Source of the DNA: a virus
IMG/VR virus record: IMGVR_UViG_3300029982_000012
Strand: one strand, 5' to 3'
DNA length: 64,000 nt
A model generated the notes under the pieces. That model saw only the letters and a program-made list of their open reading frames with translations, made no database searches and was not told the origin of the DNA. This document shows positions 1-18,399 of the stretch, piece by piece. The position numbers were made by a program, and so were the translations under genes. Within the stretch, counting starts at the first letter, position 1; every line of letters begins with the position of its first letter.

Positions 1-1395
1 ATTAATCGTATAGGTAGAAGATGGAGAAGTATTGCCAGCAGCGATGTCAGCAGTTGCATCTTGAGAAAATAAAGGAACAATAATGTTCACTTGAATTCCA
101 GCAAATTGGGCAATTGCATTCACGATATCAGCAGCGAGAGTCGGTCCGAGCAATCCACCTGAAAGATAAGCAAGAGCAGCAGGATCTGGAAGACCAGCAA
201 CTGCCGTTGAAGTAAAGTTAACCGCAGTAGAGGTTGAGAGAGCGGCTTCGAAAGCAGCAACAGAGTTTTTGATACGACCTGGCTGAACATCTGCGGTAGA
301 AGCGATCCCAAGAGCAGTTACTTGATCTAAAGCAGAAGTAGGATTTGAATTTACTGAAGAATTGTAACTAGCCGAATAACCTGGTTGAGAATTAATGTAG
401 GCCGCAAGTTGACCAATAGTGGTGAATTGATTTAATTCTATAGATAAATTTGCTCCAATTCCACCAGTTACAGTAGTAGTTAATGTAGTAGCATTAATGG
501 TAACAGTTGCAGTTGTTCCTTCATAGCCCATAGAAAGAGCGATTACTGGAGAAATATTAAGAGTCTCATTAAGACCAGTGCTAGAATTAACGATTTGAAC
601 TTCAACCGCTGGTTCATCCGAAGAAGTATAGAGACCTGAAGAAAATCCTAATGCAGCCAAATCACCTGGAGTCGAATCGATTAACTCAAACGATTTTCCG
701 AATCCTTCGCTATAAGCAGCAGCATCGGCTGGAAGACTGATAGAAACAGTATTTGGAGCAGTTCCAGGAGCAGCAACTAAAGTTGTAGCCATTGCTGTGA
801 AAGTAGCATTTAATGAAGTTACCAATGTCGCAACGTTAGTAATTGTTCCTGTAGGAGTAATTACTATGGAAGGACCACCATTTACCCGAACAGTAAAAGT
901 AGCACCAGAAAGACCACTGTATGAAGTGATAGTATTTCCGGTAATGGTTGGAGCAACTTCAGCTTGAAGTGCGGTAGTGGTGTAACTATATTGATTTCCA
1001 CCGGATCCATAGTTTGAAGCAACTAATGTCCCATAAGTAGAAGCAGAATGGGTCAACATGAAAGCAGATGCTTCACGACCTCTATTTGTTTTACAGATAT
1101 AAATTGAAGATGGAGCACCGGTAATATCTGGATCATTGCTTGAAGCACATAAAGCTGCGAAACCATCAACGATTGGACCTGAACCATAAATACTTCTAAC
1201 GGTATTTAAGGCAGAAGGACCAAAAAAGTTATTGGCTAATGTTGTAACGGTATAATCAGGACCCGCACTAGCTTCGCCCATGATGAGGACGACACCTGAG
1301 GTAGCCAAGCCAGATGCATTTGAAATCACCTGAGTGTTGGTATAGGCACCTGGGACATTTGTGTTTAACCACGGAGTAACAATTCTTTGTGACAT
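1..1395 (-). CDS. Contractile tail sheath protein (3' part runs off the window)
   Basis: Not in the ORF track. ATG at 1395 with GGAG upstream; reads MSQRIVTPWLNTNVPGAYTNTQVISNASGLATSGVVLIMGEASAGP..., the PGxY...G(E)A N-terminus typical of sheath proteins; located downstream of head/neck genes. Confidence 0.85.
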   Translation of the reverse strand, partial: MSQRIVTPWLNTNVPGAYTNTQVISNASGLATSGVVLIMGEASAGPDYTVTTLANNFFGPSALNTVRSIYGSGPIVDGFAALCASSNDPDITGAPSSIYICKTNRGREASAFMLTHSASTYGTLVASNYGSGGNQYSYTTTALQAEVAPTITGNTITSYSGLSGATFTVRVNGGPSIVITPTGTITNVATLVTSLNATFTAMATTLVAAPGTAPNTVSISLPADAAAYSEGFGKSFELIDSTPGDLAALGFSSGLYTSSDEPAVEVQIVNSSTGLNETLNISPVIALSMGYEGTTATVTINATTLTTTVTGGIGANLSIELNQFTTIGQLAAYINSQPGYSASYNSSVNSNPTSALDQVTALGIASTADVQPGRIKNSVAAFEAALSTSTAVNFTSTAVAGLPDPAALAYLSGGLLGPTLAADIVNAIAQFAGIQVNIIVPLFSQDATADIAAGNTSPSSTYTIN

Positions 1396-1410
1396 TTTTA
1401 ATATCTCCTA

Positions 1411-1692
1411 TTACTTAATCTTTTTAAGCCCGAAGTGAGCTAAGCCATTAGCAAAACTTTCTGGCGTATCCATATTGATTGCTTTTAAATGTAGCCAAAG
1501 CGCTTTTTCAATAGATTTGGCTTTTTGATATTTGGATTTATTTGCGGCCCAAAAAATACGAAAAGCTTCTCTCTTTTGATCTTCATTTAAAACTTTTGGA
1601 GTTGGCTTATAAAGCGAAGTTCTCCATTGACGGGCTTCTTCTAAGCTCATTTCGTCTGATTTAAATTCTTGTTGTTTCTTTTCCTTAGCCAT
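1411..1692 (-). CDS. Hypothetical protein (93 aa) upstream of sheath
   Basis: ORF tightly packed in the late operon. Confidence 0.7.
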   Translation of the reverse strand: MAKEKKQQEFKSDEMSLEEARQWRTSLYKPTPKVLNEDQKREAFRIFWAANKSKYQKAKSIEKALWLHLKAINMDTPESFANGLAHFGLKKIK

Positions 1693-1696
1693 CTTA

Positions 1697-2371
1697 TTAT
1701 CCTGGTAACTTTGGTTTTGACATTTGATGAATTTGATTCAAAGTAGCTTCATGAATACTTTTAGCGCCTTGTTTTGCTTCTGCCGCACCTTTAGGAGTAG
1801 AAAATTGTGCATTGCGAACCATATTTCCGGCTTCGCTCATTCCGCCACTACGACCGTTATTTCCGGTTTGATTAATACCAGTTTGATTTTGATTGCTTTC
1901 AGTTGTTGCGCGAACATTACCGGTTTTTCCACTCATTTTAGAAGCATCTTCACTGAGTACGCCTTTACGAGCTTCTTCACTTTTATCCATCTCTTTAGAC
2001 TTTTGACCTTTTTTGTGCTCCATGCGTCCCATAAACTTAGCCAGCTTAATGTGACCTCTCATTTGTGGCTCTGCATGTGCTGGATCTGAATTCTTCTCTT
2101 CATGTTCCTGAACATCTTGCTCTACTTTTTCACCAAGGTCCGCATCTGCTTTTGCATCAGGATTTTGCCCTTGTTCATCGGATTTATTCATTTTTGCTTT
2201 AATAGCGCCATCGATTTTGTCGGCACTCTCTTCAGAATAGCCTTCACGTTTCAATTTGGAATGAATTTTAGCCCAATCCCCTTTAGCTAGGCTAGAGGAT
2301 TTATAGAGTTCTTCGGCTTTTTTAAGAACTAAAACAGCCGCCTCTTGTGGAGTAAATTTTTTATCTGACAT
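1697..2371 (-). CDS. Putative internal head protein, hydrophilic, with repeated x-x-K-S motifs
   Basis: LYKSS, LAKGD, MNKSD, MDKSE motifs; N-terminus similar to 3130..3453; SD and CAATCTTA motif upstream. Confidence 0.6.
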   Translation of the reverse strand: MSDKKFTPQEAAVLVLKKAEELYKSSSLAKGDWAKIHSKLKREGYSEESADKIDGAIKAKMNKSDEQGQNPDAKADADLGEKVEQDVQEHEEKNSDPAHAEPQMRGHIKLAKFMGRMEHKKGQKSKEMDKSEEARKGVLSEDASKMSGKTGNVRATTESNQNQTGINQTGNNGRSGGMSEAGNMVRNAQFSTPKGAAEAKQGAKSIHEATLNQIHQMSKPKLPG

Positions 2372-2392
2372 AGTGGGTCTCCATATAATATG

Positions 2393-2400
2393 TAAGATTG
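2393..2400 (-). promoter_or_regulatory. Putative late promoter motif YAATCTTA (representative copy)
   Basis: Also on the minus strand at 3461, 9040, 13433, 14665, 21169, 29555 and on the plus strand at 17865, 18386, 21146; each copy is intergenic and oriented toward the downstream gene. Confidence 0.7.
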
Positions 2401-2406
2401 GTTAAA

Positions 2407-3124
2407 TCAATCTACAATAGTATTCATCTCTATTAACTTATTGTTTTTATTAATCTTTATTTTTTGCATATCCATAATTGTCTTTTTTCTATGATCTTCT
2501 TTCCAAAGAGGCTGCAAATTAGTGTAATGACATAAAGATTCCAGTTCTTCGATAGTTTTGGCCATAGCCAACGGTATTATATGGTCTATATCCCACAAAT
2601 CTCTATTTTCCCATGACATGTTACCCCTAAATAGCGACTGTATATAGCTAAATGCCTCTTCTATGGAACATCCAAGCATTTTAAGGGTTTTTTTGAGATT
2701 TATCTTTCCCCCTAAAAGCTGCTGAAGTTCGAGACCTTAAATTGGATTCAAAATTGAATAATTTATCATTCTTTCTACGATTTTTTATGTACTGACCCTG
2801 ATAGCTAACCCTTTCTTTTTTATGGTATAAGTAATAATCGTTCTGATAATCAATCCTTTGCTCCTTATGGGCTCCATAGTATTTATTGGCGTCTTCTTTT
2901 ATCTTTTGGGCATTTTCTAAACGCCAAGCTTTATGGTATTCTTTTTGTTTTTCTTTATGTAACTCTCTGTATTTCAATATCTTTTTTATATTTTTCTTGT
3001 AACTTTTCTTGCCGCTAATCTTTCTGCAAGGTTTACATCTATCCTGTAATCCGTTAGGACGAGTAGAATTATGGCCAAATTCTTGGTTTTCTTTAATTGA
3101 TTTACACTTATAGCATTTGGTCAT
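2407..3124 (-). pseudogene. HNH homing endonuclease split by a one-base frameshift
   Basis: ORF 2681..3124 (CxxC...CxxC N-terminus, basic helical region) joins ORF 2407..2679 (LGCS...MSWEN...WDIDHIIP...CHYTNLQPLW) if one A is removed from the A7 run at 2688-2694. Confidence 0.8.
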
Positions 3125-3129
3125 ATATA

Positions 3130-3453
3130 TTATTTTTTGTTTTTTGCGTTTTTCAAAAAAAGTTCCAGTTTATCAATTCCATTATTATGATTGGATTCTG
3201 ATTTCCCCATTTTTCCATAAAACACGCTAGGCTTGTCCATCGCACCACCCAATTTCTTGGGTTTGGCCGTCTTTACAACCGCTTGGGATCCAACCTTCAT
3301 TGGACTGGCAGTGTTGCTGTTCGTAGGGCTTACAACCCCAGGAACCGGCGTTAATTGGGTTTGCTTTAAGCCGCCGATAGCAGATTTCACCAATTCTTCT
3401 GCTTTTTGTAGAACGATTACAGCCACTTCTTCTGGAGTGTATTGCTTAGGCAT
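3130..3453 (-). CDS. Putative internal head protein, N-terminal paralog of 1697..2371
   Basis: YTPEEVAVIVLQKAEELVKSA versus FTPQEAAVLVLKKAEELYKSS. Confidence 0.6.
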   Translation of the reverse strand: MPKQYTPEEVAVIVLQKAEELVKSAIGGLKQTQLTPVPGVVSPTNSNTASPMKVGSQAVVKTAKPKKLGGAMDKPSVFYGKMGKSESNHNNGIDKLELFLKNAKNKK

Positions 3454-3469
3454 ATATCGATAAGATTAG

Positions 3470-4504
3470 TTATTCTTCATCCTTGTAAGCTATATCGGCT
3501 AATGTGCTCCAATTAACTGTATTCAAATCTTCAAATGTATCTGTTATATTGCTTATAATTTTAAGTCCACCAATATAACCTTCGCCTTCAGATACAGGAG
3601 TTCCATCTGGTTTGGTAGTAGAGGTGCCACCTTGACCCAAGACAGCAGTTTCAAGTAATCTATGTGGTTGATTGTACCATCTATTTTCCACTTGACCGGT
3701 AATCTCTATATCCCTAGACCATATTACTTGACCTGCGTCAGAATAATCTGGATTGGGATACATTTGACCACTTGAAATAAGACTTTCTGCGTAACCATCT
3801 TTTTCTAACAGTGCTTGGCGGTATCTAAGTAAAGAATAGGTTGTAATTGCATGAAGCCAAAGCAAAGTCTGTTGATCCATAGCATTGCAGGTAATTTTGT
3901 AGTTTTCCTTCATGAAGGTATGACTAATTCTAGTTTCATAGAATTGAAATTCTGAAAGGACGCCATATTTTGCTGCTGTTAGACTCAATCCTTTAAATAA
4001 ATTAATTGAATTATTCAAACCAATACTTTGAATCGAATAGCCAGTTCCTGTAGCAGGATCTACAAGAAGCATGCCAGGACTGATATTAGTAAAATCAATG
4101 GTAGAAGAGAAAGTAAATGCACCAGAAGTCGGATTATACGAGCCAGGAATCGGTTTGATTATATATGGGATTTGTTTATTGATATTATTTGGCATCAGTC
4201 TAACTTTTTCAACACTTAAGTCTCCCATGTGTTTCATGTCAGCTTTTTCATTGCTATTACCAATTTGAATTACTACACAAGGAAATTCCATTTTATCGTC
4301 CCTATTGGACATAAAAGTGTACACCCTATTATTGGCAAACCATTGCTTACATGATTCGATTTGGCTGCCGTAACGTTCACGCAGATATTGATTGGAAAGA
4401 GTGTCTCCTAATATATCGTCTAGAAGCCAAGGATTTTTTTGAATATCCTCAAGGCCTAGTTCGATTGCAGTGCGAATTCTTATATCGCCAAAAAATAAAG
4501 ACAT
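3470..4504 (-). CDS. Virion structural protein, probable tail completion/terminator
   Basis: Position between neck genes and sheath; FPCVVIQ motif resembles tail terminators. Function inferred from synteny. Confidence 0.5.
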   Translation of the reverse strand: MSLFFGDIRIRTAIELGLEDIQKNPWLLDDILGDTLSNQYLRERYGSQIESCKQWFANNRVYTFMSNRDDKMEFPCVVIQIGNSNEKADMKHMGDLSVEKVRLMPNNINKQIPYIIKPIPGSYNPTSGAFTFSSTIDFTNISPGMLLVDPATGTGYSIQSIGLNNSINLFKGLSLTAAKYGVLSEFQFYETRISHTFMKENYKITCNAMDQQTLLWLHAITTYSLLRYRQALLEKDGYAESLISSGQMYPNPDYSDAGQVIWSRDIEITGQVENRWYNQPHRLLETAVLGQGGTSTTKPDGTPVSEGEGYIGGLKIISNITDTFEDLNTVNWSTLADIAYKDEE

Positions 4505-4506
4505 AA

Positions 4507-5307
4507 TTATCTACTTCCGTATTTAGACATCAAAGATGGTAAAATATCTTTTTCCCATCTATCTTCAGCCCATTTCTTCGCTTCTTCGAAGAACTTTTTA
4601 CCTTCTAGCCCTGGATGAATCCATTTACCGTCTTGACCTTCTTTAACGGTTCTAAAGGTTGTTATGCTTCTTTTTACGCTACCATCATCTTTTTTGGTTT
4701 GATAAATGGATAGCCCATGCAACACTGGAGTATTTCCTCTTCCTGGGATCCCACTCTCTATATCAAATGAATGTAATTTACCTATCCTTGGACTTCCTGT
4801 CTTCGGATCTATTTCTAATTTTTTGTAAGGAATATCTCTTTTTCTTAATTCAGATTTTACTTTCTTTATAAGTTCTTGTTGATATTTTAGTTTATCATCA
4901 TTACTACTTAATTCAGATGCTACCTTTCCCTGATCAAAAGCTACGATTCTGTATTTTTTACCATCCTTGCCAGTTTTAATTTCCCCTTTACTCCCAGGTT
5001 TTTTGGTATTCAAAAGACCCTTCTTCATATCGAAATTGTCAGGCAATCCTTTTTCAATCCACTCAGCATCTGCTTTTAAAGTAATCTCCCATAAATAGTC
5101 ATCAATTTTTTCGGCTTGAGATAGATTTTCTAAATAAATTTTACGGCTGGACTTTAATTTATTTTGTGCTTCCTCTACAATATGGGTTTGGGTATCTACT
5201 GCAAGTCCCTTTACTGATTTCTTTAAATCAGACACTACTTCTTTCTTGAAGTTTTCAAGAAATTGGGTAAGTGCCGATATATCTAAGGTGACTTTAAAAT
5301 CAGGCAT
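4507..5307 (-). CDS. Probable neck/head-tail joining protein
   Basis: Basic protein ending FRTV...WIHPG...FFEEA, like HK97 gp10-type neck proteins; synteny. Confidence 0.55.
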   Translation of the reverse strand: MPDFKVTLDISALTQFLENFKKEVVSDLKKSVKGLAVDTQTHIVEEAQNKLKSSRKIYLENLSQAEKIDDYLWEITLKADAEWIEKGLPDNFDMKKGLLNTKKPGSKGEIKTGKDGKKYRIVAFDQGKVASELSSNDDKLKYQQELIKKVKSELRKRDIPYKKLEIDPKTGSPRIGKLHSFDIESGIPGRGNTPVLHGLSIYQTKKDDGSVKRSITTFRTVKEGQDGKWIHPGLEGKKFFEEAKKWAEDRWEKDILPSLMSKYGSR

Positions 5308-5308
5308 A

Positions 5309-5519
5309 TTAACCTTTTATAGGTACTCCATTTGGACCTAAGACTCTACCCTCTTTCATATCGATGAAACGGACTCGACCGTTTTCGTCCGTAATCTTCT
5401 TCTGGCCCTTTCCATTGACGCCACCCTCAGGAATAGGATTTGCGGCAAGATGAGTAGTGGTATGTTTTGCAGATAGTTTGCTAGCAGGAATGGGTCCGGC
5501 TAGCCCTGATTTTTTGGGT
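5309..5519 (-). other. Programmed -1 ribosomal frameshift site and ~67-codon C-terminal extension of 5500..7539
   Basis: GAC CCA AAA AAT CAG GGC TAG, followed by hairpin GCTAGCcGGA-CCCAT-TCCtGCTAGC; the -1 frame is open to TAA at 5311-5309. Confidence 0.75.
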
Positions 5520-7539
5520 CTGGGGCGGCACCCTCCATAGGAGCCGCTTTTTGTTGCATAGGTGCTGGTTTTGGAGGAGACTGTTGTTGAGCAGGCGCAG
5601 TAGGTGCAGGCGCTGAATTAGGAGATGTAGGCGATGGTTCAAGGCCTAGTAATTTACAAAGTTCAATCATTGATTTTAACATTTGAATACAAGAAGTGTA
5701 CAGGCCTTCATTTTGCTCTCTTGTGGCCTCCAACGATTGCTTATTGGCTTTAAATTGTTGAAGAGTTTGCGATACCATATTAACAACTTTTTCTCGTTGT
5801 ATCTGATCTTGATTGTCTTGTAATCCACCTTGCAGAACACCCATCATATCTGGTTGTTCATCACCACCTTGTGAATCGCCCATGACCTGTTCTTCTCCAG
5901 GCATAGGGCTATTAGGATCACTAACTGCTTGTGTATCTTGCTGAAAATCCTGATCTTGGTCTGAAATATTTTGTTTTTGTGCGTCTCCAAAATTCGACTT
6001 CACAGAAACATTGTCTTTCATTGCATCGCCTTGCGGCATCTCAGTATTATCTATTTGTCCGGCTTCCTGAGTAGGATCTGCATTTCCTTGACCAGGTTCT
6101 TGATCTAGTAAATTAAGTACTTCTTCAGCCGTTTCGTGTCCTTGCAAATTAGGGTCTTGTTGGCCATTTTGTGCTGGATCGCTTTCAACTGCATCTCCAT
6201 ACATTTCTTGACACTGAGGGCAATTTTCTGGGTGTTCTGCTCCCATGTCTTGAGCTTCTACATTTGATTGGTCCTGATCATACTCAGCACACCAAGGACA
6301 GTCACATGTGTCCTCGTGTTGTGGATTTGCTTGAGATCCAGTAATATTTTCTGTTTGACAATAAGGACAATCATCAATGTGACCGGTTTCTTGATTAGAC
6401 TGGTTGTATTCTTGACAAGCGGGGCAGTCATCGTGCATACCGGCAGTGCCGTCAGCATTTTCTTGTGCGTCAAGATCTTGACAAAAAGCGCAATCATCTG
6501 TACGGTCATCTTCATTATCGTGATTGTGTTCTTCAGCATCTTCATCGTTTTTATGGATATCGCAAAGCTTGCTTTTGTGTAAGTTACAATATTTTTCGGA
6601 TTTCTTATGATCCAGCATGTGGTTGTCCAAATGACGAGCAGTGGCGCTTATGGCCGATGCCTTTTCATGTAGCCCTTTTGCGTGGTCTTCATGTCTTTTT
6701 TGATTTCCTTGTCTCCACGCCTGTCTTTTTTCTGGATTTGCATTTATTTCTTTGTCCCTAGCCCAATCATCAGAACTTTCATGTCCAGTTTCAATAGGGG
6801 TTGTAGCAGTAGAGTAGGCTCTATGCATATCATGCATTGCCTGGTGCCCTTCTTGATGGGGGGTACCCCTACCTTCATTCCATGCAATTTTTTCATGTTG
6901 TCGTGCTAATCTAGAATGAGTAGGAGAATCCAGCCCCATCATTCCTTCATGGGTAAGTTTGGGCTTGCTATCCCCTAATTTAGGCCCTCTAGGTTTTTTG
7001 GTAGCAGTTTTCTTGTCCACCAATTGAGCATCCGCTTTATGTAAATTACATAGTCCCATAAGTTCACTCTTTTCCAGATAGGCCTCAGCAAGTTTATATT
7101 CCTCTTGTGTTGCCCTTTTTTCTCTGACTCTTCTTTTGGCTTTTTTAATATCTTCTTTGATATATTTATTGAAATAAACAATTCTATTTTTGCCACGAAG
7201 TTTCGCAACCAATAGGGCGGTGCCAGCCTCTGAAAGATTTTTCCCTACTCCAGCAGAAATAGTGTACCCAAATGATTTTTCGACACCGCTTCTTAATTCT
7301 TTTATTTTCTTTCTAGACTCTGGAGGAATAGCCATTGTAGCTTCATCTCCACCACCAGAAATTTTTGCTCCGTCATTTTGCTTGCACCAATGATCAATAT
7401 ATGCTTGGGCCGCATCAATACGGCCAGAAACTTTATGTAGTTCTTCAACATCGTTAGCAATTACGGCCCGACCTACTAGTTTTCCAATGCCATCACCATC
7501 GACAGCTATGTATAGCATCCCTGGCTTAATCTTTTCCAT
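5500..7539 (-). CDS. Multi-segment head-module protein: N-terminal mCpol/GGDEF-like nucleotide cyclase domain, His-rich segment, CxxC repeats, acidic Q/D-rich region
   Basis: aa 8-123: YIAVDGDGIG...ISGGGDE...TISAGVG...ALLVAKLRGKNRIV, the palm-domain pattern of mCpol/Cas10/GGDEF cyclases; followed by LEKSE. Confidence 0.75.
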   Translation of the reverse strand: MEKIKPGMLYIAVDGDGIGKLVGRAVIANDVEELHKVSGRIDAAQAYIDHWCKQNDGAKISGGGDEATMAIPPESRKKIKELRSGVEKSFGYTISAGVGKNLSEAGTALLVAKLRGKNRIVYFNKYIKEDIKKAKRRVREKRATQEEYKLAEAYLEKSELMGLCNLHKADAQLVDKKTATKKPRGPKLGDSKPKLTHEGMMGLDSPTHSRLARQHEKIAWNEGRGTPHQEGHQAMHDMHRAYSTATTPIETGHESSDDWARDKEINANPEKRQAWRQGNQKRHEDHAKGLHEKASAISATARHLDNHMLDHKKSEKYCNLHKSKLCDIHKNDEDAEEHNHDNEDDRTDDCAFCQDLDAQENADGTAGMHDDCPACQEYNQSNQETGHIDDCPYCQTENITGSQANPQHEDTCDCPWCAEYDQDQSNVEAQDMGAEHPENCPQCQEMYGDAVESDPAQNGQQDPNLQGHETAEEVLNLLDQEPGQGNADPTQEAGQIDNTEMPQGDAMKDNVSVKSNFGDAQKQNISDQDQDFQQDTQAVSDPNSPMPGEEQVMGDSQGGDEQPDMMGVLQGGLQDNQDQIQREKVVNMVSQTLQQFKANKQSLEATREQNEGLYTSCIQMLKSMIELCKLLGLEPSPTSPNSAPAPTAPAQQQSPPKPAPMQQKAAPMEGAAPDPKNQG

Positions 7540-8572
7540 TTGTTTTCCTCAAAGTGTCCAGGAGCATTTGAATATTTTCTTTATCCCAACCACGAGAAAA
7601 TCTTATCTGAATACTTTCTTCTGATTTCTTAATCCAAATTTTGCTATACTGATCTTGGCCATAGCACAAACAACAAGAAAAAGACCCTTGGCCAAAAATG
7701 GTTTGTCCGCAATCAGGGCAGTTGATAGTTTCGGATTTAGCAATTTCAATTCTATGTTCTTTTGGTTTTTTCTTTCGTTCCAAAAATGCTTTTAATGGAG
7801 AACCTTTTTCGGGAGACTCTTCTTTTTTGGCCATATCTTCTGCCTTAAAATCCAATTTTTTTTTAGGTGCTTCTGCAAAATTGGGCTCTTTATTATTTGC
7901 AATTGAATCGGCAACTTCCATGCCATTAGCCATTCCCTGGAAATACTCACCCGACTGCGCAGATTGATGGGCAATTTTTGTTACATCCGAAATCTGTTCA
8001 TTTTTCTTATGTTCTTTGGCTAAAGCTTCATTGAGCCTATCCATCATAAGTTTATTAAGAGCGTCTCTTTCAGAAATTTTATTCTCAACTACGCGACTAA
8101 CCAAAGAATGAAGTTCCATTCTTGCATCGATCAATTTTTGTATTTTGGCTTCAGCATGTTCCGTTGGCTCAATAGTCTCTTTTTCTAATTTTTCTAATTC
8201 GTAAAGTTCGAATGTAGATAGTAGGATGATACCAAGTCCAGGAATTGATCTATTTTGAAAACTGTAAACTAATTTATTGTTGTCATAGACAGATCCCGTA
8301 TAGTCATCGGCAGCATTCTTGTTTGCACTAACACGAGCGTTTTTGCCAAATGGAAGTTGAAGTTCTATACTGGTATTGAGTGGCATCGGTGTCAAAGCGC
8401 TAATGAGCAATGACATGACAAATCTTGGAACCACCTTCAACCCAATACGAATCTCTTCAGGGTCCAATACAGAATTGGATCCGATCTTGTATAGATCTGC
8501 AGATTTAGCTAAAGATTGTAGAAAATCTTCATCTAAAATCTTATTAAGAGATAGGTTGTGTATTGTTTGCAT
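7526..8572 (-). CDS. Hypothetical head-module protein with C-terminal Zn finger
   Basis: CPDC...CCLC; LAKSA, IAKSE, IKKSE motifs. Confidence 0.65.
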   Translation of the reverse strand: MQTIHNLSLNKILDEDFLQSLAKSADLYKIGSNSVLDPEEIRIGLKVVPRFVMSLLISALTPMPLNTSIELQLPFGKNARVSANKNAADDYTGSVYDNNKLVYSFQNRSIPGLGIILLSTFELYELEKLEKETIEPTEHAEAKIQKLIDARMELHSLVSRVVENKISERDALNKLMMDRLNEALAKEHKKNEQISDVTKIAHQSAQSGEYFQGMANGMEVADSIANNKEPNFAEAPKKKLDFKAEDMAKKEESPEKGSPLKAFLERKKKPKEHRIEIAKSETINCPDCGQTIFGQGSFSCCLCYGQDQYSKIWIKKSEESIQIRFSRGWDKENIQMLLDTLRKTNGKD

Positions 8573-9011
8573 TTTGTTGTGCGTATGGTCCTGTTTCTTG
8601 TGCGATCCTAGTAGGGTCTTCCATTATGTAAACTAAAAGGGTATTGGCGCTAGTATACACATACTGATTGTTCCCCGCAGATAAATAGGTCCATGCATTT
8701 GGAGGGCATGCTACTCCAACATTACCATTTGCATCTGTTGCACCGGCTGCTAAGGCGGTGATTGTAGAACTCCCAATAGTAACTGACCCCAAAGTACCGT
8801 TATTGTAAATTGCAAGATTTGCGCCAAGAAATGGAAGTGCCACTTTTGCAGAAGCATCAGTTGTATACCCACCAGCGATTTGGATTGGCAGAAGTCTAGG
8901 TCCAACCGTAAGCGATTTTTGTCCACCAGACGATGGATTGTATTCAACAACCTTAATTTGGTCTGGATCCTGTAAAGAATTGTTGTCTATTACCCGGTTA
9001 TTTTTTGCCAT
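8544..9011 (-). CDS. Putative virion structural protein
   Basis: Small-residue, beta-rich composition; GAGG SD and CAATCTTA upstream. Confidence 0.6.
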   Translation of the reverse strand: MAKNNRVIDNNSLQDPDQIKVVEYNPSSGGQKSLTVGPRLLPIQIAGGYTTDASAKVALPFLGANLAIYNNGTLGSVTIGSSTITALAAGATDANGNVGVACPPNAWTYLSAGNNQYVYTSANTLLVYIMEDPTRIAQETGPYAQQNANNTQPIS

Positions 9012-9053
9012 AAAAGTCCTCTATTGCTATATATCACTATAAGATTGCTAAGT

Positions 9054-10010
9054 TTAGTCCGTTCCAAGGTCATCTTCCGAAATGTTTACCATATCGACAC
9101 TAATGGACCCAGGGCCTGGTTTAATTGAATCCAGGGGCTCTTGGACTGCCCTATTTGGGGTTTTCGATTGGGATTGATTCTTGGGATCAGGTCTATTTTG
9201 AGAGTGGTAGACATACTCGCGTTGAATTATAGCGTAATAGGCCATTCTTTCGGGAACCCTAACGCCACCTTCAGTTACGTTACTCATTCTAACTTCTTTA
9301 GGGATTTCAACTACATAGTGGTATGCTTTATACAAATATCTTATTGAATAGACATTCCCTTTACCTGTTTTTGGATCAAAACCTGGATTCTTACCGCCAT
9401 CCATCCAATTAATACTACCATCACTACTTACGCAGTAATCAAGTCCTTGAGAATATTGATTATTTTTACTATCTATAATCGGAACTTCAAGTTGAATAAT
9501 TGGGAACATGGGGACATTTGGTCCAACTTCATATGTCATTTTTTGATAGTACGATACGCTTACATTGGCAACAGGATCAGAAACATAAAGCCTATCTCCA
9601 GGAGCTAAATATATCCTATTTCCATCATCGACTGGGGCTCCATTAACCTGCACTCCTACAGATTTCGCTTTATTGTAAAATCTTGGTAAAATTAATCTAC
9701 TAACGGATGGATCTACTATGCCGCCATCGGTTCTTGTTTTTTTAGTATCGTTTTCTACTTCACAAGCAGTAAATACCCCAGCACAAAAGTAAAGCATTCC
9801 ATTTGATGTCAATACATCAAGTCCATCACGTCTATAATCGCCACGATCCTTTAGGCCAATAGGAGAAGGCATAGCTTTCCAATGACTGTAGTCAATTCCT
9901 TGTCCTGTGACAAAGGCATCGTCGCTTATTAAACTGAATGAGGTTTCAACTAGAGGGCACCACGCATTGATGGCCTGAAGTTCTTCCCCTTTTGGGGTTC
10001 TATTGCTCAT
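9054..10010 (-). CDS. Probable neck/head closure protein
   Basis: Synteny downstream of capsid and adaptor; size and pattern resemble Twort-like neck proteins. Confidence 0.5.
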   Translation of the reverse strand: MSNRTPKGEELQAINAWCPLVETSFSLISDDAFVTGQGIDYSHWKAMPSPIGLKDRGDYRRDGLDVLTSNGMLYFCAGVFTACEVENDTKKTRTDGGIVDPSVSRLILPRFYNKAKSVGVQVNGAPVDDGNRIYLAPGDRLYVSDPVANVSVSYYQKMTYEVGPNVPMFPIIQLEVPIIDSKNNQYSQGLDYCVSSDGSINWMDGGKNPGFDPKTGKGNVYSIRYLYKAYHYVVEIPKEVRMSNVTEGGVRVPERMAYYAIIQREYVYHSQNRPDPKNQSQSKTPNRAVQEPLDSIKPGPGSISVDMVNISEDDLGTD

Positions 10011-10362
10011 TTACTTTCCTTAACAAGCCGTTACTTATTTCTTCTAATTTCTTATCTGTTTTGTCGTACATATTAACTAAATTTTTAACTATCTCATTTA
10101 CTTCGAAATTTTGTTTTATTTTTTCTAGATGTCTTTCCATCTTAAAACCTTCTAGATTATTATTTGCTTTAAACTTAAAGTCCAATTTGCAACTAGTTCC
10201 ACTACTGCAAAGCCTGTCCAATTCTTTTAAGAAAAATGGAATTTTAGAATCCATAGGGCTATAACTTACAAAAACCTCTTTAGCGCCAACGATCTGGCGT
10301 TCCAAAGGCTCATTTGGATCAAATTCATGTTCGTGATCACTACAAATAATTTTAACGCACAT
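10000..10362 (-). CDS. Hypothetical protein
   Basis: Tightly coupled ORF in the late operon. Confidence 0.65.
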   Translation of the reverse strand: MCVKIICSDHEHEFDPNEPLERQIVGAKEVFVSYSPMDSKIPFFLKELDRLCSSGTSCKLDFKFKANNNLEGFKMERHLEKIKQNFEVNEIVKNLVNMYDKTDKKLEEISNGLLRKVNEQ

Positions 10363-10363
10363 A

Positions 10364-10858
10364 TTATAAGACCTTTACACCTTTCAACCCAGAACCTAGG
10401 GCTTTTTCGCTAACTGCGCCACTGATACCAGAAACGAACTCTTTTGGCAGCTTGTAAGCATCAATTACAAGTTGGTTATTTTTAATAGAAGAATTTATAG
10501 TAGCGACCTTAATGTTTAGTTTGGTAACATAAAAATCTACGCTATTACCTTCTTGTACAGAATAAATATCGTGTCCAGATTTACGGAGATCTTCTGTTAA
10601 AAAATGAGAATGACTTTCAGCGCTGAATTTCAAGCCTTCACTTTTCATAATTGGTGGATGATAGTTTGGAAATTTTTGTTCGATTGAATAGCAGAGAATC
10701 GCACGGTGAGAAGCCGCCCCAAGCACAGTATCTTGACCTTTATGGTCGGTCACTGTAGCTAAATTTAAGCCACCTTTAGTACACACCAATTTTACTTGAT
10801 TGCCGTCGATTGTTCCAAATGGTTCTGTAGAGGAGATATCATTTTCTGAGATTTTCAT
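10364..10858 (-). CDS. Hypothetical protein with central IMKSE motif (start revised to ATG 10858)
   Basis: ATG lies just after the upstream gene's stop; two halves separated by IMKSE. Confidence 0.6.
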   Translation of the reverse strand: MKISENDISSTEPFGTIDGNQVKLVCTKGGLNLATVTDHKGQDTVLGAASHRAILCYSIEQKFPNYHPPIMKSEGLKFSAESHSHFLTEDLRKSGHDIYSVQEGNSVDFYVTKLNIKVATINSSIKNNQLVIDAYKLPKEFVSGISGAVSEKALGSGLKGVKVL

Positions 10859-10859
10859 A

Positions 10860-11984
10860 TTACTTTTCCTTACTGTACGCATCTCTAATCTTTTTGACAT
10901 AGGGATGATTTGAAATAGAATTTGCATTGTTCTTCTTGGTACCAGTTATACCTTGATTCCAAGCAAAAGCCGTTTGATCGGGGTTATTTTTAAAATTGTG
11001 CTCTATGTGGGCTAGATGACGATCTGCTATTATTTCTTCAAGACCTTTGTTATCCTGCATAAATCTGTGCAATTGAGGACCCTTTAATGTCAGGGCCTTC
11101 CCATATTTTGCTTGAAGGTCCTTGTGTCCCTTAATAGTATCTGTAATGGTGTTAGGCATTAAAGCCCATTTACCATAAGCCTGACCTTGAGAAGTAGGAG
11201 CGTGGTTTGTATTTTTCCCACCACTTGATTCTACTTGCATGATAGCATTTAGCATTTTTTTGTGATCGTAATTATTTTGATGGGCTTGCATGTCGGGAGA
11301 ATTTTTGATATTCGAAGTATGATTAGTGCCTCCAGCTAGCGCTGCTGCCATGCCCAATCCTATACCGACATTTTTTAGTGCGCCTTTTTCTAGGACTTGT
11401 TCGGACTTATTGACGGATAATTTTGCGGTATAGTCGCTCTGATCAGGAAATTGGGGTTCAGCACTATCTGATTGATGATGGTAGGTTTTTAGCCTCTTAG
11501 GACCCTTTTTCAATTCTGCATTACCAAATTCAATTCCTGCTTCCTTTGCGGTTTTAGCGCCAGAGGATTTAATTTTGTCATGCATATCTTTAGGAACACT
11601 GATATGGGGTGCCCATTCACGTTGTTCAGGAAGTCCCATATGTGCAAATTTACCATGATGCTCTTTCATTTTCTCTGCAGAATTACCTTTTAATGTAATG
11701 ACAAAAACATCCGATCCATTACGATCTTTAAATTGGTTTGGTTCTATCTGAGTATTTTTTGCATCAGGAGGATTCAATGGAAGGTGTTTGGCCATGTTAT
11801 GAATTTCGTGAGCGTGATCTTTATTTGCGTCGAATTCTTTGATGGTAGAATGGTATGGGATACCATTATCTGACCTACAATCTTGACCATTAATCTTTAC
11901 TGGATATAGTAAAATCAACCCTTTATTGGCTTGTTCAGCATATTGGGCAGGATTTTCAGATTTATTTATTAAATTACATTCCAT
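10860..11984 (-). CDS. Fusion protein: 2H phosphoesterase (Acb1-like) + hydrophobic segment + lytic transglycosylase/lysozyme-like domain
   Basis: Two H-x-T/S motifs (PYHSTI, APHISV) 82 aa apart; C-terminal AIMQVESSGG...AYGKWALMPNT...AFAWNQG SLT pattern; INKSE, VNKSE and LEKGA at the domain boundaries. Confidence 0.75.
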   Translation of the reverse strand: MECNLINKSENPAQYAEQANKGLILLYPVKINGQDCRSDNGIPYHSTIKEFDANKDHAHEIHNMAKHLPLNPPDAKNTQIEPNQFKDRNGSDVFVITLKGNSAEKMKEHHGKFAHMGLPEQREWAPHISVPKDMHDKIKSSGAKTAKEAGIEFGNAELKKGPKRLKTYHHQSDSAEPQFPDQSDYTAKLSVNKSEQVLEKGALKNVGIGLGMAAALAGGTNHTSNIKNSPDMQAHQNNYDHKKMLNAIMQVESSGGKNTNHAPTSQGQAYGKWALMPNTITDTIKGHKDLQAKYGKALTLKGPQLHRFMQDNKGLEEIIADRHLAHIEHNFKNNPDQTAFAWNQGITGTKKNNANSISNHPYVKKIRDAYSKEK

Positions 11985-11988
11985 AAAA

Positions 11989-12924
11989 TTAAATATTCGA
12001 TACCAAGAATTTAGTTGCAAAAGTAGCTTTTACTTTACCAACCAATTCCATTTTTTTCTTTTCTAATTGTTCGATGTAAGGAAGGTACATTCTAGGGCCA
12101 GGTCCAGAAGATGATTGGCTGATACCATCCCTACTCAATGACTGACTTGTAGTCAGAAACAGATTAGTGATCACAGAGAGCATATTAATGGCAGCAATGG
12201 TTCCCACTAAATCATTGATCACTGTAGGAAACTGACCTTCAATTTTTGAAACACCGGTCTGATAAACAATTTGCCAAAATCCAGGAACAAAAGTAAGTGA
12301 ACTAAAAACATTCAAATACGGAATACCACCGTAAGCACCAACTCCGCCGCCACTAGCAACAGAGTAGGCACCTAGAATTGGTACTACGTTAACAATACCT
12401 TTAGCAAAGTTACTAGGCTCAAGCCATTCAGGTGGAATTTTAAAAACCGCATACCCATCACTACTAACAATTTGAACGCTTTGTACAGCCAAGATAGGAT
12501 TTTGTTCTGTTTTTAAATAAATGAAACTTTTGTAGAGAGCGATATCGAATGGGACCTTATCAGTAAACTGTTCTCTGCTTAAAGTAATCTTACAAAGCAT
12601 TTCGACTTCATTAATAGCCAGACCAATTTGGTCTTTAACGTCTTCAGCACTGTAAGAATCACCATTTGGAAATGCCAAGGGAATCCCTTTGAGATAACGA
12701 GAAATCAATAATTGTGGAGTAAGAATAGGCTCACATCTACTCAATAGACCAGACGATTTACTCATGTGGACTGGATATGCAGCAGAATAGAATTGCTTAT
12801 CCTTATCGAAATTCGGAGGTTGAGGAGTGCCGTCTAATGGACCAGATGTAGGTTTAGGAACCGGCTCATAAGGAGCTTGTTGTTCTACATATGGTGGTCC
12901 TGGCTTAAATGGAGGATTACTCAT
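11989..12924 (-). CDS. Head-tail adaptor/neck protein
   Basis: SQSLSRDGISQSSS motif near the C-terminus, as in Twort-like adaptors; synteny. Confidence 0.65.
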   Translation of the reverse strand: MSNPPFKPGPPYVEQQAPYEPVPKPTSGPLDGTPQPPNFDKDKQFYSAAYPVHMSKSSGLLSRCEPILTPQLLISRYLKGIPLAFPNGDSYSAEDVKDQIGLAINEVEMLCKITLSREQFTDKVPFDIALYKSFIYLKTEQNPILAVQSVQIVSSDGYAVFKIPPEWLEPSNFAKGIVNVVPILGAYSVASGGGVGAYGGIPYLNVFSSLTFVPGFWQIVYQTGVSKIEGQFPTVINDLVGTIAAINMLSVITNLFLTTSQSLSRDGISQSSSGPGPRMYLPYIEQLEKKKMELVGKVKATFATKFLVSNI

Positions 12925-13397
12925 TAGCAACATCCCTGATTGGTTTGTTCAACCGCTAACATATTTGTAACGGTCCAAGTCCAAGTATTTATGCCTTGAG
13001 TTAAAGTAAAGATAACGTTTCCGCTAGAAGGTCCATACCCAACATTTGCATATCCTGGAATATTAAAAGACCAAACAGAAGCATCATTGGGATCGGGGGT
13101 GCCTGTATAAGTAAGTGTTTTTCCAATGCTTAAACTAGGAAAAGTAATAGTCATGCTGATTGGCTGATTGCTCGTACCCACTCCTGCAATATATCGTTGG
13201 GGATAGTTTTGAATAGCAGCATTGAAGAAACCGCCATTTAGAGCAGAAAATGGAGCTTGGGTACTAGTAATATTATCTAAGTCAAATAGTTGATAATAAA
13301 GGGTATTCGGATCCGATGCCCTTATTGTCCACTGACTTGTTTCTTGGAAGTCATTGATATTGCTAAAGTTTATAATTGGTACGGAGGTCAATCTCAT
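12924..13397 (-). CDS. Putative structural protein
   Basis: Late motif and GAGG SD upstream; beta-rich. Confidence 0.55.
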   Translation of the reverse strand: MRLTSVPIINFSNINDFQETSQWTIRASDPNTLYYQLFDLDNITSTQAPFSALNGGFFNAAIQNYPQRYIAGVGTSNQPISMTITFPSLSIGKTLTYTGTPDPNDASVWSFNIPGYANVGYGPSSGNVIFTLTQGINTWTWTVTNMLAVEQTNQGCC

Positions 13398-13507
13398 TTT
13401 AAATACCTCAAAAAAAGTAGTTCTCTAACTTATAAGATTGCATAAAAAGCTTGAAAAAGACATTTTTCGTGTTATTATCTATTCTACAATCATAGAAGGA
13501 GATTTAA

Positions 13508-14131
13508 ATGCTTAAAGTAGAATTCGAAGGTACAGATGGCGCAGGAAAGACAACCGGCCTTAAATATTTCATTGAACAGGCCAAGAAACGTGGTTTTTCA
13601 GTAACCGAAACCCGCGAAGTGGGCAATCCGCATATTCCAGCATGTGTGAAAATGCGGGAATTAGTTCTTGACCCAAATAGTAACCTAAGCGGCGAAGCAA
13701 TGGAGCTTGTTTTTTCCGCAATGCGATTCGAAAATGATCGATGGTTAAAAACGGTAAATTCACAGTTAGTCGTATCTGATCGTGGATGGTTGAGTCATCT
13801 TGCCTATACCGATCATAATGTGGACGAAGATTTTACTAAGAATCTTTATGAGCGTTTTGTAGGACTTGAAACCCAGTTACCCGGCGCAGTTATTTATTTT
13901 GATGTTAGTACAGATACAGCCCTTAAGCGTCGCAATAATCGTGGCACTTCCGATGTTATTGAGATGAAAGGTGTACCTTTTCAAGAGAAAGTTCGATCTT
14001 CTTTCGAAAAACATCTTAATCAATATGGACAGTTCATGAAAGTATTTCGAGTTAATGCGAATGGTACTATTGACGAAGTACGACAAGAACTAGACGGTAT
14101 TCTAGATAAGATCGCAACACTACCCCTATAA
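13508..14131 (+). CDS. tmk: Thymidylate kinase
   Basis: FEGTDGAGKTT P-loop, TRE, SDR motifs. Confidence 0.92.
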   Translation: MLKVEFEGTDGAGKTTGLKYFIEQAKKRGFSVTETREVGNPHIPACVKMRELVLDPNSNLSGEAMELVFSAMRFENDRWLKTVNSQLVVSDRGWLSHLAYTDHNVDEDFTKNLYERFVGLETQLPGAVIYFDVSTDTALKRRNNRGTSDVIEMKGVPFQEKVRSSFEKHLNQYGQFMKVFRVNANGTIDEVRQELDGILDKIATLPL

Positions 14132-14659
14132 GACTTTTCTACTTTTATGACGATTTTCGGATCTAGTAATAACTCTTAGATTCCAAGGTACATGAAGACC
14201 TTTTCTGTCTTTGCCCATAACAGGTTCTATATGATCGACTTCATGTGGTATTCCGGTACTTTGTGTTAACTTTGCAGCTTCTATATAAAAAATCTCTATT
14301 TGGGTCCAATGATCTTCTGTCAACCATTTAGGTGTAGCGGCTCTTTTTTGGGCACGTCTCCTAGCAGTCTTTGCGTTAGATTTTCCTGGATTATTTTTCC
14401 TGTATTCCTGATCGTATATTTTTAATTTTTCTTTCCTTCTTAATGTCTGAACTGCACGTTTTTGTGATGCTAACACAGGATCTTTTTCTTTTTTTGCTCT
14501 TCTTCTTAAACGGATCTTTTCTAGGTTTTCTTTTTGCCATTCCCTTGAATCGGAGTTATGACATTTTTTACAGATAGCTCTAAGTCCATCTTTACCAAAT
14601 TTGGCTTTTCCAAAATCTTTGAATTCTTTATTTTCTTTACAAGCAGTACAGGCCTTCAT
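14126..14659 (-). mobile_element. Free-standing HNH homing endonuclease
   Basis: CxxC...CxxC N-terminus; ATPKWLT...HEVDHIEP...GLHVPWNL...N. Confidence 0.88.
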
Positions 14660-14709
14660 ATATATAAGATTATCTCACCCATATACAAAAGTCAATAGAA
14701 AACGAACAC

Positions 14710-14743
14710 AAAAAAGCCCCCATAGAATTAACTATGGAGGCCC
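14710..14743 (-). terminator. Intrinsic terminator after the major capsid gene
   Basis: Minus strand GGGCCTCCATAG-TTAATT-CTATGGGGGC-TTTTTT. Confidence 0.85.
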
Positions 14744-14766
14744 TTTAAATCAATGATGTTTAAGTC

Positions 14767-16170
14767 TTAGGTGAAAAGTTGTCCTTGAAGATTTTCAACG
14801 ATAGCGTTCTTACGTGGAGCTTCTACTGCGAGAGTAGTCCAACGATAGAAAGCGTTATTGATTGACAATTGACTAATACCTAATTGGATTTTTTTGAATC
14901 CGCTTAGCTCACCTAAATGCATCGTGTCTTTTTGAATCAAGAAACCGGTTAAAGCACCTGGAGCCAAGTTACCAAGGTCGGTGAAAGTAGCACCGCTTGG
15001 AAGAGCAAGAATATTACCGATAAAGAGTGGTCCTGGAGCAACGTTTGCAGCCACACCAGCAGCAGTACGATAAACGCGGTAGTAAAGAGCACCGGCAACT
15101 GCACCGATAGCAACTGATACTTTATTTCCAGCGAGAGCAGGAGTAACAGTTGTTACAGCAGAAGTTGGGCCTTCGCCGAAAGCGTTAACTGCAGCAGCTT
15201 GGTAGCTATAAGCAGCAGCTTGGAGGAGTGATCCAGCAGCGCCACCGTCAGTAGCAGTTGCTGTTGGAGCAGCAGGAGCGCCTACGATAGATTGGTTGAT
15301 AGGGCTAATTTGCTTACGCAAGTACTGAGACATTTCCATGGTGATTGCACCGCTAGAAGTCCATTGAGTACGTAAGTGAGAACCAGTAGCTTCTTGTGGG
15401 CTACCAGCAAGAACGATACGTTCTTTAGCTTGGCTAATTTTGTTGTAAGCAGAGAGAGAAGAAGGATCAAGCATAAGTTTGTCAGCGCGACCCATGTTAA
15501 GGGCAGAACGAACTGAAATATCTTCAATCAATGATTGGGTGAGGGCTGCGCCACCTGCAGAGAACACTACAGTTGCACTTGAACCGTATGATGCGAACAT
15601 GAGATCTTGTCCATTGCGCTCATAGTCAGAAGCACGAACTTGAAGATCAACACCGCGCATATTTGGCAATGCAGGTACTAACGCTGGGTTACCATCGAAA
15701 ACACCTTGGTTAGAGAAATCTGAGTTACCTGCGAAAAGGTCGAACTCGATATCTTGAGCCAAGTTAAGAGCTGCGTCTTGTGCTTGGCGCTCTTCAGCAG
15801 AAACTTTATCGAAAGTTTCAACTGCGTTAGCTACCAGTGAATGCTCACGAGTATCAACGTAGTAAGCCATTGGAATTACGAGACGAGCTGCTTGACCAGT
15901 CTTTTTGGCTCCGAGCATACCTTCGTATGCAGCAGATCCACCGAAACGACCTACAGACAACTTGCGGTTGTACTGATAAAGGTTGCTTTTTGCAGGACGA
16001 CTGTCCAACATTTTTTGCAATTTGATGGTTTCTTCAGCAGCAGTCACGTTTACCATAACTGGCGCTAAATCTTCGATTTGGTAAGCTGCACCTTGTACTA
16101 AAGTACTAGGGGCTGCATTATAACTGCCTGCTTCCAATGCTTTCATGAGGCCCTGAAGTTGTTCTAACAT
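14767..16170 (-). CDS. Major capsid protein (Herelleviridae-like, with inserted Ig/FN3-like domain)
   Basis: N-terminal K|ALEAG...GAAYQIEDL; YSYQAAAVNAFGEG...YYRVYRT insert; strong SD, biased codons, terminator downstream. Confidence 0.92.
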   Translation of the reverse strand: MLEQLQGLMKALEAGSYNAAPSTLVQGAAYQIEDLAPVMVNVTAAEETIKLQKMLDSRPAKSNLYQYNRKLSVGRFGGSAAYEGMLGAKKTGQAARLVIPMAYYVDTREHSLVANAVETFDKVSAEERQAQDAALNLAQDIEFDLFAGNSDFSNQGVFDGNPALVPALPNMRGVDLQVRASDYERNGQDLMFASYGSSATVVFSAGGAALTQSLIEDISVRSALNMGRADKLMLDPSSLSAYNKISQAKERIVLAGSPQEATGSHLRTQWTSSGAITMEMSQYLRKQISPINQSIVGAPAAPTATATDGGAAGSLLQAAAYSYQAAAVNAFGEGPTSAVTTVTPALAGNKVSVAIGAVAGALYYRVYRTAAGVAANVAPGPLFIGNILALPSGATFTDLGNLAPGALTGFLIQKDTMHLGELSGFKKIQLGISQLSINNAFYRWTTLAVEAPRKNAIVENLQGQLFT

Positions 16171-16205
16171 TTTGTTTCTCCTTGTTTCCTAAATTTTACC
16201 CCTGC

Positions 16206-17204: not shown

Positions 17205-17234
17205 AGTTGTAGTCTCCTCTTTCTATGTCTACTA

Positions 17235-17868: not shown

Positions 17869-17878
17869 CTTATAGTAT

Positions 17879-18379: not shown

Positions 18380-18399
18380 ATGGCTCAATCTTAAGGTAT

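Follow-up and report, generated by a model that had tools for sequence, protein, structure and literature searches.

The viral DNA stretch IMGVR_UViG_3300029982_000012 (64,000 nucleotides; below, the window is this whole stretch) carries, among virion genes on its minus strand, a gene whose product joins an N-terminal mCpol (minimal CRISPR polymerase) palm domain with an apparently intact active site to a long C-terminal section, here called the carrier, and which ends at a predicted -1 ribosomal frameshift signal. The identity of the enzyme domain is well supported, by profile searches and by modelling alike, and so, on comparative grounds, is the frameshift signal with its conserved trans-frame product. 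We propose that this recoded mCpol-carrier protein would be a late, packaged, protease-released nucleotide synthase acting on host nucleotide immunity, a reading to which we give about an even chance of being right.

The window comes from a large, uncultured tailed phage, an Mx1-like myovirus. Its major capsid protein shares 46.5% identity with the one in the cultured Myxococcus phage Mx1 (169.6 kb, contractile-tailed), and it also encodes a portal, a large terminase, a tail sheath, a GroEL-like chaperonin, Pol III alpha and a C5 methyltransferase.

An mCpol domain with conserved active-site residues

The gene and its enzyme domain lie as follows.

5500-7539, minus strand: zero-frame open reading frame (ORF) of 679 residues (P0001), from the ORF translation
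7165-7539, minus strand: mCpol palm domain, residues 1-125 (Pfam, NCBIfam, sequence match in the PDB, model and Foldseek, column conservation)

An earlier reading of the letters alone (the sequence-only reading) had proposed a minimal mCpol-type palm with intact acidic residues at 7060-7539, on the strength of four motifs. All four are present, at residues 10-19 (YIAVDGDGIG, with D14 and D16), 61-66 (SGGGDE, with D65), 93-99 (TISAGVG) and 112-121 (AKLRGKNRIV), and the profiles, the structural comparison and the column conservation given below agree with the assignment. Its span, which corresponds to residues 1-160 of P0001, holds for the domain together with a conserved basic helix, but the gene itself occupies 5500-7539 and reaches 5309 with the frameshift extension. 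The key residues of the domain are the catalytic D14, D16 and D65-E66, together with G97-x-G99, K113 and G116-K117.

The profile match covers residues ~9-125. The domain scored 62.2 bits against the Pfam mCpol family PF18182 (E 7.3e-17, cut-off 26.4 bits, profile positions 1-113/114) and 55.9 bits against NCBIfam NF033576 (cut-off 40); judged on the letters, the motif arrangement and the profile matches lie far above chance. Among the families that the sequence-only reading had named for comparison, mCpol is above its cut-off, whereas Pfam GGDEF (PF00990) gave no match at E <= 0.01 and the Cas10 palm (PF22335) reached 17.8 bits, below its cut-off of 27. The PADLOC Cas10 and CARF_HEPN_mCpol models matched weakly. 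The motif is here GGDE-A, and F follows GGDE in 39 of the 213 aligned domains.

Among solved structures, the sole significant sequence matches were the Panoptes synthase OptS (9mnr) and the mCpol entry 9nwn, with E 2e-9 for the single sequence and 5e-19 for the family profile. An AlphaFold model of residues 1-165, made from an alignment of 90 relatives, had a predicted local distance difference test score (pLDDT) of 94. Compared by Foldseek with the OptS/mCpol chains 9mnr, 9pd0 and 9nwn, it gave template modelling (TM) scores of 0.85-0.88, a root-mean-square deviation of 1.5-1.9 Å and 31-32% identity. GGDEF domains, GTP cyclohydrolase III and Cmr2 formed a second tier of matches, and the palms of Thg1, Y-family polymerases and REV1 matched weakly. 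The closest structure is a catalytic enzyme, OptS, and not a non-catalytic ferredoxin fold.

The active-site residues of KpOptS are Asp6 and Asp57 (PMC12657218), with which D14 and D65 align. The aspartates are kept by the homologues: across the 213 domains, D14 is found in 208, D16 in 211 and D65 in 212, with E66 in 202, G63 in 208, G64 in 209, G97 in 212, K113 in 210, G116 in 209 and K117 in 199. In KpOptS the serine S30 tunes product choice and N34 faces the adenine (PMC12657218). The S30 position is S38 here and is Ser in 199 of the 213, while the N34 position is D in 108 and N in 45, and otherwise E or Q; ATP as the substrate is at most a reasonable guess. The protein belongs to the mCpol domain family, and is not a Panoptes system, a GGDEF cyclase or a Cas10; its domain is apparently a working, catalytically competent nucleotidyl cyclase or oligomerase.

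A conserved -1 frameshift signal at the end of the gene

The 192 nucleotides (nt) that look like a gap between this gene and its downstream neighbour encode protein in the -1 frame, and the elements of a frameshift signal are found at the junction.

5512-5518, minus strand: slippery heptamer C CCA AAA, in the X XXY YYZ phase of the zero frame
5480-5504, minus strand: predicted stimulatory hairpin of 6 + 3 base pairs, 7 nt past the heptamer (z -1.9)
5309-5512, minus strand: -1 frame extension P0214, 67 residues and a stop, basic (C-segment hidden Markov model, E 1e-28)

A second heptamer, A AAA AAT, overlaps the first and is likewise in phase. The predicted products are a zero-frame protein of 679 residues and a trans-frame protein of ~743 residues. 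Many relatives carry a conserved basic C-segment of ~65 residues in-frame, and about half stop at ...DPKxQG as P0001 does. The hidden Markov model (HMM) of this C-segment has a single match in the window, P0214. This extension lacks its own start codon, and for that reason we reject the view that it is a separate small gene.

The C-segment lies in the -1 frame just past the stop in 18 loci (the window, L002, L006/13/15, L007, L012/20, L014, L016-L019, L025/26, L028, L037 and L039), with E-values down to 1e-33 in those other than the window, and it is in-frame in seven (L003, L008-L011, L023 and L031). An in-phase canonical heptamer occurs in 13 of the 14 -1-frame loci examined, inside the last 7-22 nt of the zero frame: CCCAAAA in the window and eight others, AAAAAAG in L002, AAAAAAA in L039, GGGAAAA in L028 and GGGAAAG in L037, that of L025 being non-canonical. 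Every locus examined (the window and 13 more) has a predicted hairpin 4-8 nt past the heptamer; the hairpin sequences differ, and covariation is modest, with compensatory changes in 3 of 10 pairs in an alignment of nine loci. Sequencing error as the source of the frame change was rejected, because the change recurs in 18 loci from different samples and with different heptamers. The comparative case for two isoforms, as predicted from these alignments, is strong. In one further locus (L024, QGNH01001864.1) the C-segment is in the +1 frame, perhaps through an assembly error or another recoding event.

Programmed -1 frameshifts are known from E. coli dnaX (tau/gamma), phage G/GT and T7 10A/10B. 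The arrangement resembles these in its in-phase X XXY YYZ heptamer, its spacer of 4-8 nt, its predicted hairpin and the two products, here predicted, that share an N-terminus and would be made in a fixed ratio. It differs in that the shift adds a conserved end of ~65 residues, which some relatives fuse in-frame, and in that the recoded gene is not the tail chaperone and lies upstream of the sheath.

Architecture of the carrier

From its N-terminus, P0001 consists of the mCpol domain, which is the best conserved section of the protein, a basic helix, a private insert, CPxC repeats, an acidic Q/D/E-rich tether, a helical segment and a Pro-rich end.

7063-7164, minus strand: basic helix-turn-helix extension, residues 126-159 (model helices 127-139 and 145-162)
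6595-7062, minus strand: His-rich insert, residues 160-315, ~156 residues (alignment of the close family)
6205-6492, minus strand: five acidic CxxC repeats, mostly DDCPxCQ (conserved across the family)
5635-5817, minus strand: conserved helical segment, residues 575-635 (60-63% column identity among 64 relatives)

The basic extension terminates in AYLEKSE, in which K157-S158-E159 is a putative head-protease site, and the pattern AYLxK[SAG][ED] is found in 64 of 64 close relatives with at most one departure. The His-rich insert, which ~90-98% of the close family lack, has a duplicated KSE..CNLHK motif on its two flanks, the second K-S-E being residues 313-315. Where P0001 has this insert, relatives P0005, P0054 and P0056 have different ones, which looks like an exchange of modules between cleavage sites. 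The CxxC repeats are possibly zinc knuckles, a presumed metal-binding role. Two relatives (P0304 and P0306, on contigs of 166 kb and 47 kb) are truncated by frame breaks within the CPxC repeats, which may be prone to slippage or assembly error. For the full-length protein the ESM Atlas gives a poor model (pLDDT 0.50). Carrier residues 126-679 and the extension matched no family in Pfam, the PDB or the ESM Atlas, and the extension has no known relatives.

The basic extension and the Cys-rich knuckles could either of them bind DNA. Together with the palm, which is common to Thg1, Y-family polymerases and REV1 (all weak matches), and with the place of the gene among head-completion and neck genes, this might suit a nucleic-acid-directed nucleotidyl transferase that acts on the ends of the packaged DNA, by modification or capping, with Thg1-like or end-protector logic, a role comparable to that of the genome end-protector gp2 of T4. 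Cyclases (OptS, then GGDEF) are however much its nearest relatives, whether judged by sequence or by structure, and the minimal domain has neither fingers nor thumb; we consider a transferase of this kind very improbable.

A phage-specific family in the head-to-tail module

The mCpol gene lies within a single minus-strand block that runs from the capsid gene (14767-16170) to the sheath (1-1395). The placement in a structural module that the sequence-only reading had proposed agrees with this, since genes for the major capsid protein, the sheath and terminator-like proteins are in the same block. Its immediate neighbours are the following.

7526-8572, minus strand: upstream gene of 348 residues, family unknown, whose stop overlaps the mCpol start by 14 nt
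4507-5307, minus strand: downstream gene of 266 residues (phrog_16819), which always adjoins the mCpol gene (PHROG, synteny)

Because of the 14-nt overlap, the 348-residue and mCpol genes are probably co-transcribed and translationally coupled. Towards its C-terminus the 348-residue protein shows a cluster of Cys residues (CPDC ... CCLC), and it also contains three K[SA]E sites. The language-model neighbours of the 266-residue protein are tail-completion or HK97 gp10-like proteins, which we take as a lead only, and its gene is followed by that of a terminator-like protein of 344 residues.

A word-indexed search found 71 close homologues of 402-1023 residues, each with an N-terminal mCpol domain, on contigs of up to 234 kb. 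An exhaustive HMMER search gave 791 representative clusters at E < 1e-3, 513 of them below 1e-10, and nearly all of the best 150 matches have 300-1200 residues; the contigs that carry these homologues measure 150-234 kb. Short homologues (74-237 residues) were considered as stand-alone bacterial mCpols and ruled out, being contig-end fragments or products of CPxC frame breaks. The scan of IMG/VR gave 6 loci and that of metagenomes 37. The prokaryote scan, which used one genome per species and clade-specific peptide patterns and so reaches near relatives only, gave one locus in 185,579 species genomes, on a 69-kb contig of a metagenome-assembled genome. With tblastn against 50,697 phage records, the whole protein found nothing at 1e-5, and the domain alone, at E <= 1, found Mx1 and one faecal contig only.

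In the divergent members L002-L005 the mCpol gene is followed by a gene of ~250-280 residues, one of ~330 residues, small genes, a sheath-sized gene of ~700 residues and a Phi812-like tube gene; the window and Mx1 keep the same order from mCpol to sheath. By synteny, the mCpol gene is a conserved, core-like member of the head-to-tail module of a phage-specific, Mx1-like myovirus clade, not a one-off acquisition, and its sequences mark it as an old, phage-specific branch of mCpol and not a recent capture of a host gene.

The sequence-only reading had seen no effector or cas gene nearby, and none was found within ~10 kb. Pfam searches of all ORFs in 1697-17702 gave no CARF, SAVED, HEPN, S-2TM-beta or cas protein, no neighbour has multiple predicted transmembrane segments, PADLOC gave no CARF, SAVED, 2TM, HEPN or cas protein among ten neighbours (3470-12933), and the PHROGs and NCBIfam scans of the neighbours gave no nucleotide-binding effector family. 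Every characterised mCpol is a defence synthase (PMC12657218, PMC12657230, PMC13577387), and the gene could on that pattern be a phage-borne, Panoptes-like defence against competing phages with its effector encoded elsewhere. Such a defence we hold to be extremely improbable, as no effector lies nearby, the clade is of lytic type with its single locus among the prokaryote genomes, and in no Panoptes operon does the gene, as here, sit amid late structural genes with a carrier fused to its product.

The K-[SA]-E motif and possible packaging

In the proteins of the virion block (minus strand, window 1-17702) the motif K-[SA]-E is found 19 times, where residue shuffles predict 5.1 (3.7-fold, P ~2e-6); elsewhere in the window it is found 16 times, with 13.2 predicted. 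Six copies are in an acidic, scaffold-like ORF (16206-17204) upstream of the capsid gene. Two are in P0001, at residues 157-159 and 313-315, both domain borders, and the motif closes the N-terminal domain in both the mCpol family and the family of 2H-like proteins described below. Cleavage after Glu is typical of the head proteases of T4-type and phiKZ-type phages. K-[SA]-E is a likely head-protease site, as far as its distribution can tell, and the pattern, taken with proteases that cut after Glu, points to loading of the protein into the capsid and release of the enzyme domain.

The protein might instead stay unpackaged, as a late intracellular enzyme whose product is a phage-internal signal for a phage-encoded sensor (in lysis timing, superinfection exclusion or assembly control), the carrier serving to localise or dose it. 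Co-transcription with late genes, suggested by the 14-nt overlap, would fit such an enzyme, and with 64 kb of a ~167-kb genome viewed a distant sensor is possible. Yet the place of the gene between neck-type and tail genes is fixed across very divergent phages, a frameshift that sets an isoform ratio is typical for structural proteins, and the K[SA]E pattern is common to the scaffold-like protein. We regard an internal signal as possible but unlikely.

A 2H phosphoesterase-like domain as syntenic partner

Upstream of the mCpol gene, the same block encodes a second candidate enzyme of nucleotide signalling.

11469-11984, minus strand: 2H phosphoesterase-like domain, N-terminus of a protein of 374/386 residues (HxT/S motifs, model, synteny)

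The protein is encoded at 10860-11984 (or to 12020), minus strand, and consists of the 2H-like domain, K-S-E and LEKGA motifs, a hydrophobic stretch and, at its C-terminus, an SLT lytic transglycosylase domain (Pfam). In its N-terminal 205 residues H45 and H127 are invariant, each within an HxT/S motif. Pfam gave no match to the 2H-like domain. Its model has a pLDDT of 83, above 90 across the core, and the top 40 Foldseek matches are all 2H enzymes, at modest TM scores of 0.36-0.54; they include the phosphodiesterase of Burkholderia phage BCSR5, penguinpox cGAMP phosphodiesterase, rotavirus VP3, phage Acb1, LigT and YjcG.

In 15 loci with enough flank the 2H-like domain precedes the mCpol gene by ~4 kb; it was not found at that place in L003-L005 or Mx1. 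From this conserved spacing it is, by position, the syntenic partner of the mCpol gene. Homologues join the same N-terminal 2H-like domain to different C-terminal parts (217-667 residues).

The domain resembles the viral 2H phosphodiesterases (Acb1, 7t26/7t27; BCSR5 phosphodiesterase, 9q2g; penguinpox cGAMP phosphodiesterase, 9ciw; rotavirus VP3) in its two HxT/S motifs and in its modelled fold, which matches this class only; it differs from them in having no Pfam match, in the modest TM scores and in its fusion to an SLT muramidase.

Proposed mechanism

We propose that the protein would be made late, together with the virion proteins, and that ribosomes would yield the 679-residue form plus a ~743-residue form by a -1 slip at C CCA AAA. 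The carrier end would load the protein into the particle, where the head protease would cut after K-[SA]-E and free the enzyme domain, and the freed domain would be delivered with the DNA or be active late in the infected cell. It would convert nucleoside triphosphates, probably ATP, into a cyclic di- or oligonucleotide; because the domain has no sensor, it is probably a constitutive synthase. The product would then interfere with host nucleotide-based immunity. Counter-defence or manipulation of host signalling, which the sequence-only reading had suggested, is likewise a putative role. We infer catalysis, packaging, cleavage, product and target alike.

In Panoptes, the mCpol product holds the effector off, and the effector fires once that product is taken away by a phage sponge or phosphodiesterase (PMC12657230). 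A type II Panoptes has also been described (PMC13577387). The proposed product could, for example, hold a Panoptes-type guard in its silent state, with the signals of cyclic-oligonucleotide-based antiphage signalling (CBASS) or type III systems being cleared by the co-encoded 2H phosphodiesterase. A phage that carries a 2H phosphodiesterase would profit from an mCpol product of its own, which is the possibility that we find most attractive. The two proteins would then form a writer-plus-eraser kit, the 2H phosphodiesterase erasing CBASS or type III signals and the mCpol domain supplying the decoy nucleotide of Panoptes-type guards, whether virion-delivered or late; this specific form of the proposal we consider decidedly unlikely.

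Several observations weigh against packaging and against an effect on host immunity. No MuF/SPP1 gp7-type or other known capsid anchor was found in carrier residues 126-679 and the extension. Only in the closer family does K-[SA]-E follow the domain, other linkers being present in more distant members; the capsid protein has no K-[SA]-E, and the window yielded no secure identification of a head protease. No nucleotide sponge turned up in the 64 kb viewed of the ~167-kb genome, nor any sign of a host Panoptes, and the writer-plus-eraser kit would be futile if the phage 2H enzyme cuts the mCpol product.

The positional orthologue in Mx1 belongs with these points. This protein (P0213, Mx1 33963-35369) matches the domain HMM at 4e-13 and has kept the domain and its gene position, but has lost D14, D65, E66, K113 and K117; to judge from these losses, it is catalytically dead. 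Because it is dead yet retained, the carrier has a role independent of catalysis. The protein could accordingly be essentially structural, its mCpol fold serving the neck or the interior of the head as a module for structure or nucleotide binding, with vestigial catalysis, and the gene does behave as a core virion-module gene. Against this, the catalytic residues are kept in 202-212 of 213 domains at identities down to ~31-35%, a level that vestigial sites would not reach. Mx1 also encodes, at 17173-17904 between its prohead protease and capsid genes, a GGDEF-type nucleotide cyclase of 243 residues (Pfam GGDEF, E 1.3e-9) with an intact GGDEF motif. This looks like a replacement of the lost activity, and the cyclase activity of the Mx1 head module may have been replaced rather than abandoned. 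We judge an essentially structural role quite improbable, and keep the packaged, protease-released synthase as the working proposal.

Other features of the region

A short motif, CAATCTTA, stands before several genes of the window.

9040-9047, minus strand: the copy of CAATCTTA closest upstream, possibly a late promoter of the transcript of a 155-residue gene, the 348-residue gene and the mCpol gene (placement before starts)
2393-2400, 9040-9047, 13433-13440, 18386-18393, 21146-21176, 29555-29562: copies of CAATCTTA

Seven of the eight copies are intergenic, 6-35 nt before start codons and on the coding strand of the next gene, and they precede virion genes and other genes. Eight copies are no significant excess over the 4.7 expected, since 11 of 100 shuffles attain that number. 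The motif is a candidate phage promoter or leader motif, for which its placement alone is suggestive. A sigma-70 scan found 40 promoter-like sites against 39.7 expected, and the promoter and terminator scan was uninformative around the mCpol gene.

A strong intrinsic terminator with a 15-base-pair stem and a T run lies at 14711-14746 (minus strand), directly 3' of the capsid gene, and is the only convincing one in the virion block. Two very basic small ORFs in the structural block (2681-3124 and 14126-14659, minus strand) resemble nucleases of the endonuclease VII/HNH type (PHROG E 2e-5; Pfam HNH E 0.02) and are probably homing endonucleases.

Relation to known systems and significance

The domain shares with Panoptes OptS the minimal palm, the length, the catalytic aspartates (D14/D65 for Asp6/Asp57 of KpOptS) and the serine at the S30 position, at an identity of 31-32% only, and has a full GGDE motif that is nearly absent from OptS (PMC12657218). 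It also differs in its setting, having no optE, CARF-transmembrane or other effector partner in the ORFs of 1697-17702, and in being phage-encoded, fused to a carrier of ~550 residues, placed in a virion module and followed by a -1 frameshift signal. Panoptes systems (optS-optE, or mCpol with a CARF-transmembrane protein) are encoded in bacterial or archaeal genomes, often beside CBASS, whereas the phage clade has one prokaryote locus. With GGDEF domains and Cas10/Cmr2 the domain has in common a homologous palm, the GG[DE][DE] hairpin and the metal-binding Asp of strand 1; it is shorter than GGDEF and comes without I-site, HD domain or cas neighbours.

A packaged, injected enzyme is known in T4 Alt. 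GGDEF domains occur in phage polyvalent proteins, with predicted delivery at invasion (Iyer et al. 2017, PMC5512222). Those with GGDEF or RelA/SpoT domains resemble the present case in having an enzyme domain among virion genes and in the 2H phosphoesterase theme (PMC5512222); here there is a single enzyme domain, it is mCpol and not GGDEF, a MuF/SPP1 gp7 anchor is lacking, and delivery is presumed.

Our search of the literature on Panoptes and related papers found no mention of a phage-encoded mCpol, and database entries for phage GGDEF proteins exist. The mCpol domain was reportedly defined by Burroughs et al. in 2015, and has so far been studied only as the synthase of a bacterial Panoptes guard, which turns the anti-signal proteins of phages against them. 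What is new here is the setting, phage-specific and virion-linked, in which an enzyme fold and a recoding mechanism, both known, come together. With the conserved -1 frameshift and the pattern of protease sites there is also a way into the question of how enzymatic cargo is loaded, and its dose set, in large phages. An intact mCpol in the virion module, beside a 2H-like domain, suggests that phages also write immune-type nucleotides, which, if so, would be a new move in the nucleotide-signalling arms race. The writer-plus-eraser kit, if true, would be the first counter-measure against a guard system, widespread in an environmental myovirus clade, with its dose set by a programmed frameshift and its release by the head protease.

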